Shown here: in pieces, positions 2-5,989 of the stretch | Numbering within the stretch: position 1 is the first letter of the stretch | Layout: each line of letters opens with the position of its first letter | IMG/VR virus record: IMGVR_UViG_2534682173_000012 | Direction: 5' to 3' (one strand) | Origin: a virus | Lineage: Duplodnaviria > Heunggongvirae > Uroviricota > Caudoviricetes | DNA length: 5,989 bases | The notes under the pieces: model-generated | The model's database searches: none | The model's input: the letters and a program-made list of their open reading frames with translations, nothing else | What the model was told of the DNA's origin: nothing | Program-made: the position numbers and the translations under genes

Positions 2-1416
<1,415 letters not shown>

Positions 1417-1665: not shown

Positions 1666-1855
1666 GAGTGGCAGGGGAAGCGTCACTCTGGAGTTTAAGA
1701 TTTTCCAGAAAGGCAATCAGGGGGCAGGCAATATCACCGACTGTACGGTGATTGTGACCAGAGTGGCAGGGGAAGCGTCACTCTGGAGTTTAAGATTTTC
1801 CAGAAAGGCAATCAGGGGGCAGGCAATATCACCGACTGTACGGTGATTGTGACCA
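1666..1855 (+). repeat. Perfect direct tandem duplication, 2 x 95 bp (1666-1760 and 1761-1855), inside the 3' end of J
   Basis: Both units read gagtggcaggggaagcgtcactctggagtttaagattttccagaaaggcaatcagggggcaggcaatatcaccgactgtacggtgattgtgacca; compared base by base, no mismatch. Flanking bases (c before, a after) do not allow the boundaries to slide. Confidence 0.95.
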
Positions 1856-1907
1856 AAAAAGCCGCTTCCGGCATCAGTATTCGTTGAAATTGTTATAACC
1901 CATATAA

Positions 1908-1935
1908 GGGCGTCAGAAATGACGCCTTTTTTATT
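1908..1935 (+). terminator. Rho-independent terminator downstream of J
   Basis: Stem ggcgtca (1909-1915), loop gaaa, stem tgacgcc (1920-1926), followed by TTTTTT (1927-1932). Confidence 0.7.
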
Positions 1936-1956: not shown

Positions 1957-2556
1957 ATGCGTAAACTTTATGCCGCCATTTTGTCCGCAGCCATTTGTCT
2001 GGCCGTATCCGGTGCGCCTGCATGGGCGTCTGAACATCAGTCCACGCTGAGCGCGGGGTATCTTCATGCCTCGACGAACGTTCCCGGCAGCGATGATCTG
2101 AACGGGATTAACGTGAAATACCGTTATGAGTTTACGGACACACTGGGGATGGTGACGTCATTCAGCTATGCAGGAGACAAGAATCGCCAGCTGACCCGTT
2201 ACAGCGATACCCGCTGGCATGAAGATTCCGTGCGTAACCGCTGGTTCAGCGTGATGGCGGGGCCGTCTGTGCGCGTGAATGAATGGTTCAGCGCGTATGC
2301 GATGGCGGGTGTGGCTTACAGCCGTGTGTCGACTTTCTCCGGGGATTATCTCCGCGTAACTGACAACAAGGGGAAAACGCACGATGTGCTGACCGGAAGT
2401 GATGACGGTCGCCACAGCAACACGTCTCTGGCGTGGGGAGCTGGCGTGCAGTTTAACCCGACCGAATCCGTGGCCATTGATATTGCTTATGAAGGCTCCG
2501 GCAGTGGCGACTGGCGCACTGACGGTTTCATCGTGGGTGTCGGTTATAAGTTCTGA
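1957..2556 (+). CDS. lom: Lom outer-membrane protein (Ail/Lom/OmpX/PagC family 8-stranded beta-barrel), lambda-type moron
   Basis: 199-aa ORF: MRKLYAAILSAAICLAVSGAPAWA (signal peptide, likely cleaved after AWA) ...SEHQSTLSAGYLHAS...GFIVGVGYKF, ending in the aromatic C-terminal residue typical of outer-membrane beta-barrels. Matches my recollection of lambda Lom. Good RBS upstream; position between J and stf as in lambda. Confidence 0.93.
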   Translation: MRKLYAAILSAAICLAVSGAPAWASEHQSTLSAGYLHASTNVPGSDDLNGINVKYRYEFTDTLGMVTSFSYAGDKNRQLTRYSDTRWHEDSVRNRWFSVMAGPSVRVNEWFSAYAMAGVAYSRVSTFSGDYLRVTDNKGKTHDVLTGSDDGRHSNTSLAWGAGVQFNPTESVAIDIAYEGSGSGDWRTDGFIVGVGYKF

Positions 2557-2582: not shown

Positions 2583-2610
2583 AGCCCGCCGGTTCAGGCG
2601 GGCTTTTTTG
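2583..2610 (+). terminator. Rho-independent terminator downstream of lom
   Basis: Stem agcccgc (2583-2589), 8-nt loop, stem gcgggct (2598-2604), followed by TTTTTT (2604-2609). Confidence 0.75.
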
Positions 2611-2620
2611 TGGGGTGAAT

Positions 2621-5600
2621 ATGGCAGTAAAGATTTCAGGTGTACTGAAAGACGGCACAGGAAAACCGGTACAGAACTGCACAATCCAGCTGAAAGCAAA
2701 ACGTAACAGCACCACGGTGGTGGTGAACACGCTGGCCTCAGAAAATCCGGATGAAGCCGGGCGTTACAGCATGGACGTTGAGTACGGTCAGTACAGCGTT
2801 ATTCTGTTGGTGGAAGGATTCCCGCCGTCACATGCCGGGACCATCACCGTGTATGAAGATTCTCAACCCGGTACGCTGAATGATTTTCTCGGTGCCATGA
2901 CGGAGGATGATGCCCGTCCGGAGGCACTGCGCCGTTTTGAACTGATGGTGGAAGAGGTGGCGCGTAACGCGTCCGTAGTGGCACAGAACACGGCAGCCGC
3001 GAAGAAGTCAGCCGGCGATGCCGGCACATCTGCCCGTGAGGCGGCAACCCATGCGACTGATGCTGCAGGCTCAGCACGCGCAGCCAGCACGTCAGCCGGA
3101 CAGGCCGCTTCGTCGGCTCAGTCAGCGTCTTCCAGCGCAGGAACGGCATCAACAAAGGCCACTGAAGCCTCAAAAAGTGCTGCCGCTGCAGAGTCCTCAA
3201 AAAGCGCGGCAGCTACCAGTGCCGGTGCGGCGAAAACGTCAGAAACGAATGCTGCAGCGTCACAACAATCAGCAGCCACTTCTGCATCCACCGCGACCAC
3301 GAAAGCGTCAGAAGCTGCCACCTCAGCCCGGGATGCGTCGGCTTCAAAAGAGGCAGCGAAATCATCAGAAACGAACGCATCCTCGAGCGCCAGTAGCGCA
3401 GCTTCCTCGGCAACGGCGGCAGGCAATTCCGCGAAGGCGGCAAAAACGTCCGAGACGAACGCCAGGTCTTCTGAGACGGCAGCGGGACAGAGCGCCTCAG
3501 CTGCGGCAGGCTCAAAAACAGCGGCTGCGTCGTCTGCCAGTGCCGCGTCAACAAGTGCCGGGCAGGCCTCAGCCAGTGCCACCGCCGCCGGAAAATCGGC
3601 AGAAAGTGCTGCATCGTCCGCTTCAACAGCCACAACGAAGGCTGGCGAAGCCGCTGTACAGGCCAGCGCAGCAGCGAGGTCTGCTTCCGCAGCGAAGACA
3701 TCCGAAACGAATGCGAAAGCGTCGGAAACCCGTGCAGAATCCTCAAAAACGGCAGCCGCATCGTCCGCCAGTTCGGCAGCGTCATCGGCATCATCTGCGT
3801 CTGCTTCAAAAGATGAGGCGACCAGACAGGCGTCAGCAGCGAAGGGCAGCGCCACGACGGCATCCACGAAAGCAACAGAGGCGGCAGGCAGTGCGACGGC
3901 GGCATCTCAGAGCAAAACTACTGCTGAATCCGCTGCGACCCGTGCGGAAGCTGCTGCTGATCGTGCTGAAGAGATTGCCGGTGCAGTTGCGATGGAAGAC
4001 GCAAGCCTTACAACTAAAGGTGTTGTGAAACTTAGCAGTGCTGTTGATAGCACCAGTGAATCGCTGGCGGCAACGCCAAAGGCAGTAAAATCAGCCTATG
4101 ACAATGCAGAGAAACGTCTGCAGAAAGACCAGAACGGCGCTGATATACCCGATAAGGGACGCTTCCTGAACAACATTAACGCGGTCAGTAAAACAGACTT
4201 TGCTGATAAGCGTGGTATGCGTTATGTGCGGGTTAACGCTCCTGCAGGTGCAACATCTGGAAAATATTACCCTGTTGTTGTTATGCGTTCTGCTGGCTCA
4301 GTAAGCGAACTGGCATCAAGGGTCATTATCACCACGGCAACGCGACCCGCAGGCGATCCGATGAATAACTGCGAGTTTAACGGATTTGTTATGCCTGGTG
4401 GCTGGACTGACAGGGGGCGTTATGCTTATGGAATGTTCTGGCAATATCAAAACAATGAACGAGCCATCCACTCAATAATGATGAGTAATAAGGGCGATGA
4501 TTTGCGCTCTGTGTTCTATGTTGATGGCGCTGCTTTCCCTGTTTTTGCGTTTATCGAAGATGGCCTGTCAATATCCGCACCTGGTGCTGATCTCGTTGTT
4601 AATGATACGACCTATAAGTTTGGGGCAACAAATCCGGCGACTGAATGTATCGCGGCGGACGTTATCCTTGATTTTAAGAGTGGGCGTGGTTTTTATGAGT
4701 CTCATTCGTTAATCGTTAACGATAACTTGTCGTGCAAAAAACTTTTTGCCACAGACGAAATTGTAGCGCGTGGTGGTAATCAGATTCGAATGATAGGTGG
4801 GGAGTATGGGGCATTATGGCGTAATGATGGCGCTAAAACTTACCTGCTGCTTACCAATCAAGGTGATGTTTATGGTGGCTGGAATACATTAAGACCGTTT
4901 GCTATTGATAACGCAACCGGCGAACTGGTTATTGGAACCAAACTGTCCGCAAGTCTGAACGGTAATGCATTAACAGCAACAAAGCTGCAAACGCCAAGAC
5001 GGGTTTCTGGTGTTGAGTTTGATGGTTCCAAAGATATTACTTTAACCGCCGCGCATGTGGCTGCTTTTGCCAGAAGGGCAACGGATACATATGCCGATGC
5101 GGATGGTGGCGTTCCCTGGAATGCCGAATCAGGCGCTTACAATGTCACCCGCTCTGGCGACAGCTATATTCTGGTTAACTTCTATACCGGAGTCGGAAGT
5201 TGCCGGACCCTGCAGATGAAGGCGCATTACAGAAATGGTGGTCTGTTCTACCGTTCTTCAAGAGATGGCTATGGTTTTGAGGAAGACTGGGCAGAAGTTT
5301 ATACCTCGAAAAATCTTCCACCAGAAAGCTACCCAGTCGGCGCACCAATCCCGTGGCCATCAGATACCGTTCCGTCTGGTTATGCCCTGATGCAGGGGCA
5401 GACTTTTGACAAATCTGCCTACCCGAAACTTGCTGCCGCTTATCCGTCAGGCGTGATCCCTGATTTGCGTGGCTGGACGATTAAGGGCAAGCCCGCCAGT
5501 GGTCGTGCCGTATTGTCTCAGGAACAGGACGGCATAAAATCGCATACCCACAGCGCCAGCGCATCCAGTACGGATTTGGGGACGAAAACCACATCGTCGT

Positions 5601-5989
5601 TTGATTACGGCACTAAATCCACGAATAACACTGGTGCGCATACCCATAGTTTAAGTGGCAGCACGAATGCAGCTGGTAATCACAGCCATAGAGATGGCCG
5701 TCGATTTAACCCCAGTGTTTTTAAAGATACTTATCAATATGGTTATACAAGCTCAGGTCAAAATACCTGGGGTGTACAAGGCTCAGTAGGTATGTCTACG
5801 GGGTGGTTAGCGAATACCAGTACAGATGGTAATCATAGCCATTCACTGTCCGGCACAGCAGCATCTGCAGGTGCACACGCGCATACTGTCGGTATTGGTG
5901 CTCATACGCACTCCGTTGCGATTGGTTCACATGGACACACCATCACCGTTAACGCTGCTGGTAACGCGGAAAACACCGTCAAAAACATC
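2621..5989 (+). CDS. stf: Side tail fibre protein Stf, 3'-partial (no stop before window end; at least 1123 codons)
   Basis: Hand translation of frame 2 from ATG 2621 has no stop through 5989, and the ORF track (which lists only ATG-to-stop ORFs) shows no frame-2 ORF here, consistent with that. N-terminus [62 protein letters not shown] matches the lambdoid Stf N-terminus as I recall it. Later come [20 protein letters not shown], a tail-collar-like segment ([50 protein letters not shown]) and repeated H-x-H motifs. Weak SD (gggg) 5 nt upstream of the ATG. Confidence 0.9.
2990..3990 (+). repeat. GC-rich low-complexity region of stf encoding an Ala/Ser/Thr-rich shaft with degenerate internal repeats
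   Basis: About 330 codons that are almost entirely A/S/T/K/E/G. The motif AAK(T/S)SETNA recurs four times (nt about 3228-3263, 3353-3385, 3431-3470, 3690-3730). Codon periodicity (GCN/TCN/ACN) creates long spurious ORFs in other frames and on the opposite strand. Confidence 0.6.

Follow-up and report, generated by a model that had tools for sequence, protein, structure and literature searches.

Positions 5330–5989 of the window, the whole 5989-nt stretch of viral DNA that was analysed, fall in stf (stfR), the side tail fibre gene of a lambda-like Escherichia coli prophage; stf starts at 2621 and its lambdoid product has 1132 aa. They encode the C-terminal part of this protein, and we are highly confident that this part is the C-terminal receptor-binding module of an StfR-type Stf, homologous to the tip of T4 gp37. 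A gp37-type module had been proposed in a first-pass annotation made from the DNA letters, and the proposal is borne out by a match to the T4 gp37 receptor-binding tip (PDB 2XGF; E = 5.7e-78, chain residues 27–233) and by seven HxH motifs that lie in register with those of gp37. Nothing contradicts the assignment. The finding carries little weight as a discovery: the gene is already annotated stfR by RefSeq, and the literature already covers the homology of the lambda Stf and gp37 tips, iron binding by the HxH needle and the requirement for a Tfa/gp38 chaperone. Its practical use lies in host-range work, where specificity would map to one short cassette at 5690–5815.

The stf gene and its surroundings

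The stf reading frame, found by ORF analysis in frame 2, opens with the ATG at 2621 and stays open to the end of the window, with 1123 codons inside it. The last nine codons and the tfa gene lie outside the window and are known from genomes identical to it over 4000–5989. Two of these, Escherichia coli SE11 and ECO8855, are 100% identical over that interval, and RefSeq calls the gene stfR in both; the part encoding the tip is found at 100% identity in several E. coli genomes. The SE11 sequence places the stf stop codon 30 nt beyond the window end and gives AFNYIVRLA as the last nine residues. At its N-terminus the protein carries the Pfam domain phage_tail_N (PF08400; aa 1–134, E = 6.1e-72), and residues ∼500–903 contain a Gp34_trimer domain and a Mu S'-like domain.

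Upstream of stf are fragments of J (1–1890) and then lom, and in the identical loci tfa comes next, so that the order J-lom-stf-tfa matches that of lambda. The features are listed in the table below. Three small ORFs overlap the tip-coding region, at 5447–5647 (−), 5796–5930 (−) and 5655–5789 (+), and were taken to be incidental to the long stf reading frame. Tandem Repeats Finder detected no DNA tandem repeat in 5300–5989, and a search of both strands of the tip region against Rfam gave no family match; together these null results exclude reading the region as a tandem array in the DNA or as an RNA element. The repeats of the tip region exist at the protein level only.

Features of the window, with the segments of the Stf tip module
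Feature	Position	Strand	Basis or relation to T4 gp37
lom (Ail/Lom outer-membrane protein gene)	1957–2556	+	Pfam Ail_Lom PF06316, E = 2.6e-120
Putative terminator-like hairpin and T-run in the lom–stf intergenic space	2583–2604	+	Consensus scan only
stf (stfR-type side tail fibre gene)	2621–5989	+	ORF analysis, Pfam, annotation of identical copies
Collar domain, N-terminal part (aa 902–973)	5324–5539	+	Equivalent to gp37 811–881 (D10), 59/72 identical
Descending stem strand (aa 974–1023)	5540–5689	+	40/50 identical to gp37 882–931
Tip subdomain insert (aa 1024–1065, 42 aa, free of HxH)	5690–5815	+	Between HxH 3 and 4; aligns to gp37 932–959
Ascending stem strand (aa 1066–1115)	5816–5965	+	35/50 identical to gp37 960–1009
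Collar domain, C-terminal part (aa 1116–1123 inside the window)	5966–5989	+	16/17 identical to gp37 1010–1026 (with the SE11 continuation)

Architecture of the tip module

The domain limits used here, as well as the number of irons in the gp37 needle, were taken from the description of gp37 (PMC6957217). In gp37 the collar is domain D10 and the needle domain D11. Identity to gp37 is 70–94% in the collar and both stem strands and drops to 3/42 (about 7%) in the tip insert. The C-terminal part of the collar, completed with the SE11 continuation, is also identical to lambda Stf at 17/17 positions.

All of the peptides quoted in the first-pass annotation, both the collar-like string (aa 918–956, nt 5372–5488) and the HxH strings, are present in the translation, and the collar call is confirmed by Pfam. 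Collar (PF07484; gathering threshold 24 bits) matches aa 907–954 (nt 5339–5482) with E = 1.2e-12, scoring 48.0 bits on the fragment and 46.2 bits on the whole protein. The fibre-repeat family Phage_fiber (PF03335; gathering threshold 20 bits) scored 33.9 bits over two stretches when the 220-aa fragment was scanned, and 18.8 bits, slightly below the cut-off, on the whole 1123-aa protein. One 14-aa Phage_fiber repeat lies on the descending strand, at about nt 5624–5665. Both HMM families named in advance as a check on the tip assignment are therefore matched.

The histidine array

Seven HxH motifs are present in 5330–5989. Three are on the descending strand, beginning at aa 975 (nt 5543–5551), 1007 (nt 5639–5647) and 1021 (nt 5681–5689), and four on the ascending strand, beginning at aa 1072 (nt 5834–5842), 1086 (nt 5876–5884), 1095 (nt 5903–5911) and 1104 (nt 5930–5938); the last three are spaced nine residues apart. 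At least nine motifs had been reported earlier. The array is real and that count is wrong; the list of motifs that accompanied it also totals seven.

A sequence rich in Gly, Ser, Thr and His might produce such motifs as a chance or low-complexity feature with no role in metal binding, and the region is indeed compositionally biased. However, when the 220-aa region was shuffled 100 000 times, the mean number of HxH motifs was 0.82 and the maximum six, and seven were reached in none of the shuffles. All 14 histidines of the region fall within the seven motifs, and 14/14 are invariant in an alignment of 24 sequences (76–100% identity), while the remaining 903 residues of Stf hold six histidines and no HxH. 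The motifs also align one-to-one with gp37 H883/885, H915/917, H929/931, H966/968, H980/982, H989/991 and H998/1000, and the gp37 needle reportedly contains seven coordinated irons, with H929 and H931 being iron ligands essential for function (PMC6957217). The chance reading is effectively refuted, and we give it next to no probability.

By analogy with gp37, a fold can be proposed for the Stf tip. Three chains would come together in a collar domain made of aa 902–973 and 1116–1132, from which a long thin stem would project. Each chain would run down this stem along aa 974–1023, with three HxH motifs, and back up along aa 1066–1115, with four, returning to the collar with the C-terminus at the window end. 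The HxH histidines of gp37 point inward, toward axial metal ions. Contributed by three chains, each HxH level in Stf would likewise supply six histidine ligands to one ion, and with seven levels there would be seven ions stacked along the fibre axis, riveting the intertwined trimer. In the T4 gp37 needle the metal is reported to be iron, which is critical for the folding and structure of the fibre (PMC6957217); the trimeric state and the metal of the Stf tip would follow this precedent. An AlphaFold2 monomer model of the 220-aa region, built with the 24-sequence alignment, had a mean pLDDT of 46 and a pTM of 0.17, a poor result as expected for an obligate, intertwined and metal-bound trimer.

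The tip insert and receptor specificity

Among 68 unique homologues, the columns of the tip insert are hypervariable, against a conservation of at least 95% in the flanking collar and stem. Seven HxH motifs with a long gap after motif 3 are found in 91 of 95 complete homologous C-termini, and at least 15 unrelated cassettes of 32–53 aa occupy the position of the insert. In gp37 the corresponding subdomain, residues 932–959, is the distal pole and binds LPS and OmpC (PMC6957217). The 42-aa insert (aa 1024–1065) is therefore likely to be the receptor-specificity element of this Stf: it would make up the distal pole as a small tip subdomain, contact the host receptor and set specificity. The HxH array, by homology, would be a structural stem and not the receptor-contacting surface. 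Thus, the earlier description of the HxH region as the receptor-contacting tip holds for the receptor-binding nature of the module and fails in placing the contact on the array, since the contact surface would be the insert.

As originally worded, that description had the whole HxH-rich stretch, and not the insert alone, contacting the receptor; on such a view the His- and Gly/Ser/Thr-rich repeats would themselves bind it along the needle's flank. Alanine substitution of H929/H931, next to the T4 tip, abolishes plaques (PMC6957217), and the end of the fibre has been proposed to fit into the cavity of the OmpC trimer (PMC12617516), so that part of the stem next to the tip might also contact the receptor. 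The loss of function in T4 was, however, attributed to lost iron binding and folding (PMC6957217), and a stem that stays at least 95% conserved while carrying at least 15 unrelated tip cassettes shows the wrong pattern for a specificity surface. We regard contact along the whole stretch as improbable and favour the insert as the specificity element.

The receptors of T4 and lambda are an outer-membrane porin and/or LPS. The present cassette has a sequence unrelated to that of the T4 tip and resembles the lambda tip only weakly (10/42 identical). Its receptor may differ from the OmpC/LPS of T4 gp37 and lambda Stf, though this is somewhat less likely than not. Should this be true, a common E. 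coli prophage cassette would represent a new specificity in the gp37/Stf scaffold, usable for fibre swapping. Many sequenced E. coli genomes carry the cassette, as does the isolated phage Kati, and the conserved stem on either side of it could serve as natural junctions for recombination or engineering.

The Tfa chaperone and the state of the prophage

A tfa gene had been predicted to lie immediately downstream, outside the window. In SE11 and ECO8855 tfaR indeed adjoins stf, beginning on its stop codon with a 1-nt overlap. TfaR belongs to the Caudo_TAP family (E = 1.4e-43) and shares 93% identity with lambda Tfa and 29% with T4 gp38 (E = 6e-19). Folding and trimerisation of Stf require the Tfa chaperone, and the Tfa encoded directly downstream would be needed for both in the present fibre.

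On the virion, the side fibre mediates a rapid, reversible adsorption step that precedes binding of the J tip to its own receptor. Relative to the intact J of ECO8855, the J in the window has three disruptive indels: a 1-nt frameshift near 1075–1090, the loss of 65 nt at 1400/1401, and a 95-nt segment duplicated perfectly in tandem at 1666–1855. In the complete E. coli genomes that match best, neither J rearrangement junction was seen unbroken, and all the matches listed fell into two parts. Because of these rearrangements, an exact match to the whole window is found in no complete E. coli genome, with 97.9% in three pieces as the best match.

Given the J lesions, the prophage in this strain may be defective, and its fibre may never become part of a particle. 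The stf gene would then be an unused remnant, persisting only as a passenger inactivated not long ago or as a source of sequence for recombination with incoming phages. The three J changes and the junctions missing from the best-matching genomes listed favour such a remnant, but stf is open across all 1123 codons in the window and 100% identical over 4000–5989 to copies from prophages whose J and tfa are intact, and the J lesions could be assembly or sequencing errors. On balance a remnant is possible, though somewhat unlikely. Since it concerns the use of the gene in this strain and not the identity of the module, it is compatible with the assignment of a gp37-type receptor-binding tip. Stf is presumably expressed in this strain.

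Comparison with known fibres

In T4 gp37, as in the present tip, the HxH motifs number seven and keep the same register, motifs 3 and 4 flank a tip insert, the C-terminal end is identical (...NTVKNIAFNYIVRLA) and a homologous chaperone gene, encoding gp38, lies directly downstream. The tip itself differs, being 28 aa long in gp37 and 42 aa here and essentially unrelated. The rest of Stf is also unrelated to gp37, with phage_tail_N and an Ala/Ser-rich rod as in a lambda-type side fibre, and Stf belongs to a siphovirus-type prophage whereas gp37 is carried by a contractile-tailed lytic phage.

The short tail fibre protein gp12 of T4, founder of Pfam Collar PF07484, is another relative; a short tail fibre chain (9cuy) matches the module weakly (E = 5.2e-09). 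Gp12 has a single, zinc-bound metal site formed by the HxH of three chains and no seven-site needle, and its receptor-binding domain is built differently. As a similar HxH site holds zinc in gp12, the ion in Stf could differ from iron.

The lambda counterpart, Ur-lambda Stf, is represented in lambda PaPa by orf-401 and orf-314 and lies in the same J-lom-stf-tfa gene order. The first 326 residues of the present Stf are 83% identical to it (orf-401) and the last 229 residues 71% identical, but lambda has no counterpart to aa ∼500–903, and Ur-lambda Stf has ∼774 residues against 1132 here. Lambda also has eight HxH motifs, through an extra 9-aa unit (IGAHQHPVV) on its ascending strand, and an extra 10-aa unit (SFDYGTKTTG) on its descending strand; together the two units suggest a lambda stem one rung longer. 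Lambda Stf is reported to be extensively similar to the gp37 tip, to bind OmpC and to speed adsorption (PMC12617516). A study of lambda-STF engineering (PMC11338833; Nature 2024) holds nothing specific to the present tip.

Close relatives are the StfR/TfaR pairs of Rac-type E. coli prophages, under which names RefSeq annotates the identical copies and from which we found no substantive difference, and the tail fibre of phage Kati (PP925833), which also has 1132 residues, is 99.5% identical over 5330–5989 and carries the same tip cassette; a tail fibre assembly gene comes after its coding sequence. The T4/lambda receptor-binding protein family comprises over 200 proteins, whose divergence centres on the specificity region and whose chaperone gene is always downstream (PMC9659904). 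The Stf tip described here is an ordinary member of this well-described family.

Gene content and the stf frame

The window comes from a lambda-like E. coli prophage and covers its tail-fibre end. At its N-terminus the Stf side tail fibre carries Pfam domain PF08400 (prophage tail fibre, N-terminal; E 6.1e-72), and over 326 aa it shares 83% identity with lambda orf-401, which forms the N-terminal half of lambda Stf. Positions 4000-5989 are a 100% match to the gene annotated in RefSeq as stfR in E. coli strains that include SE11 and ECO8855. Since the protein is 1132 aa long in these genomes, the window ends 30 nt before the end of the gene (AFNYIVRLA and the stop codon). The stfR type to which this Stf belongs is a common one: 1357 of the 5426 complete E. 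coli genomes carry it at a coverage of at least 80%.

Three ORFs of 230-336 aa, in other frames or on the opposite strand (3018-4028 (+), 3118-3867 (-) and 3213-3905 (-)), lie within the Ala/Ser/Thr-rich rod of Stf (aa about 135-465), and most likely arise as artefacts, since the coding sequence there is GCN-rich, biased and repetitive. The annotated antisense ORF orf206b of lambda is similar and occupies an equivalent position. Terminator-like hairpins with T-runs, identified by consensus match only, are present in the J/lom gap (1906-1929 (+)) and in the lom/stf gap (2583-2604 (+), 17 nt 5′ of the stf ATG).

Measured against ECO8855, where J is intact, the 3′ part of the tail-tip gene J (1-1890) shows three disruptive changes: a 1-nt frameshift, a perfect 95-nt tandem duplication and a 65-nt deletion (lost: MLEATQVRGDFVKAVSKAFPKK). 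In those complete E. coli genomes that matched best, neither of two rearrangement junctions was found in one piece, all matches listed being split in two. Given the three lesions and these split junctions, the source strain may carry a defective prophage, or there may be errors in the assembly; the state of J leaves the identity of the stf module unchanged.

Features of the window, with identity to T4 gp37 for the C-terminal domains of Stf
Feature	Window nt	Stf aa	Details
J, 3′ part	1 to about 1890		
J frameshift	near 1075-1090		1 nt
J deletion	1400/1401		65 nt
J tandem duplication	1666-1760 = 1761-1855		95 nt, perfect; junction 1760/1761
lom	1957-2556		Pfam Ail_Lom, E 2.6e-120
stf long open frame	ATG 2621 to beyond window end		1123 codons inside window
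Collar-N	5324-5539	902-973	59/72 identical
Descending stem	5540-5689	974-1023	40/50 identical
Tip	5690-5815	1024-1065	3/42 identical
Ascending stem	5816-5965	1066-1115	35/50 identical
Collar-C	5966 onwards	1116-1132	16/17 identical
HxH motif starts, 1-7	5543, 5639, 5681, 5834, 5876, 5903, 5930	975, 1007, 1021, 1072, 1086, 1095, 1104	

The Stf C-terminus corresponds to the T4 gp37 tip

The first-pass annotation had described a collar-like segment followed by at least nine His-x-His (HxH) motifs at 5330-5989. All of the peptide strings it quoted are found in the Stf translation; the number of motifs is seven, which is also the sum of its own list. Every one of the 14 histidines in the 220-aa region belongs to one of these motifs, and the other 903 residues of the protein contain just 6 histidines and no HxH. 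Shuffling the region gave seven HxH in 0 of 100,000 trials (mean 0.82, maximum 6), so the pattern is far from chance. Searches for the two proposed HMM families returned both: the collar-like segment is a genuine Collar domain (PF07484, E 1.2e-12), and the Phage_fiber repeat (PF03335, cut-off 20 bits) scored 33.9 bits with the fragment as query and 18.8 bits, slightly below the cut-off, with the whole protein. Scans of the region for DNA tandem repeats and for Rfam families found neither.

The proposed likeness to the T4 gp37-type tip was borne out by a match to the solved gp37 receptor-binding tip (PDB 2XGF, chain residues 27-233, E 5.7e-78), and by aligning Stf to the phage Kati, lambda orf-314 and T4 gp37 sequences, which placed the seven motifs one-to-one with gp37 H883, H915, H929, H966, H980, H989 and H998. 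In gp37, the collar D10 comprises residues 811-881 and 1010-1026, the stem 882-931 and 960-1009, and the tip 932-959; seven iron atoms are coordinated along the needle, H929/H931 being essential ligands, and binding to LPS and OmpC takes place at the tip subdomain, which forms the distal pole (PMC6957217). These limits were transferred by alignment onto Stf to define the domains in the table.

By homology, three chains would form a collar from which a stem projects, each chain running down and then back up the stem to give six intertwined strands. HxH triads would provide six histidine ligands per site, with seven axial metal ions clamping the trimer, and at the turn a small insert that lacks HxH would be the distal pole touching the receptor. 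Trimer, metal identity and receptor are all inferences here; structure prediction, for the monomer only, gave an uninformative pLDDT of 46. With such a fold-back, calling the region the receptor-contacting tip is right for the module as a whole and needs refinement: the HxH array would be structural, the C-terminus at the window end would be back at the collar, and specificity most likely resides in nt 5690-5815.

Conservation and the downstream chaperone

Querying a database with the final 230 aa gave 1732 proteins at E ≤ 1e-10. Across a 24-sequence alignment (76-100% identity) none of the 14 histidines varies. In 68 unique complete C-termini the collar and stem show conservation of at least 95%, and columns between motifs 3 and 4 hold up to nine or more residue types. 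Seven HxH with a long gap after the third occur in 91 of 95 complete C-termini, and the cassettes that fill this gap (32-53 aa) are of at least 15 unrelated kinds. Such a pattern is as expected for a constant scaffold presenting an exchangeable specificity element, and agrees with the divergence centred on the specificity region described for the T4/lambda receptor-binding protein family (PMC9659904). In a phage collection the module was carried by the lambdoid phages Kati (99.5%) and 4W (70%), by T4-like phages (about 55-65%) and by other siphoviruses, and in part by Felixounavirus and P2-like phages.

No tfa gene lies in the window. In the genomes identical over 4000-5989, the tfaR start codon shares its first base with the end of the stf stop codon (TAATG), directly downstream as had been anticipated, so the second proposed refutation, absence of a chaperone gene downstream, fails as well. 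TfaR belongs to the Caudo_TAP family (E 1.4e-43) and shares 93% identity with lambda Tfa and 29% with T4 gp38 (E 6e-19); phage Kati has the same stf-chaperone arrangement. Beyond the chaperone gene, Kati (7363-7953 of its locus) carries a DNA invertase gene just 3′ of its tail fibre assembly gene; in SE11 and ECO8855 the prophage ends past tfaR, with a diguanylate cyclase gene next.

Comparison with lambda Stf

The stf tip module is already known biology: lambda Stf is homologous to the gp37 tip, Ur-lambda Stf binds OmpC, and Stf/Tfa are functionally exchangeable with gp37/gp38 (PMC12617516; PMC9659904). The main difference from lambda is a middle section of roughly 400 aa, lambda Stf having no counterpart to aa about 530-900 (window about 4200-5320). 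This section contains a T4 gp34-type trimerisation domain (Gp34_trimer, PF21446, aa 663-762, E 3.4e-27) and, just before the collar (about aa 813-907), a domain that resembles the Mu S′ tail fibre in its variable part (PDB 8ju3), so that modules of lambda, Mu and T4 type are combined in one mosaic fibre. The tip cassette of lambda also differs, and lambda Stf has eight HxH (6270-6971 of the lambda locus) versus seven here (5540-5965) and in T4, with an extra 9-aa HxH unit (IGAHQHPVV) in the ascending strand and an extra 10-aa unit (SFDYGTKTTG) in the descending strand. The sequence comparison suggests that the lambda stem is one rung longer, with eight sites, and that stem length may vary by whole rungs.
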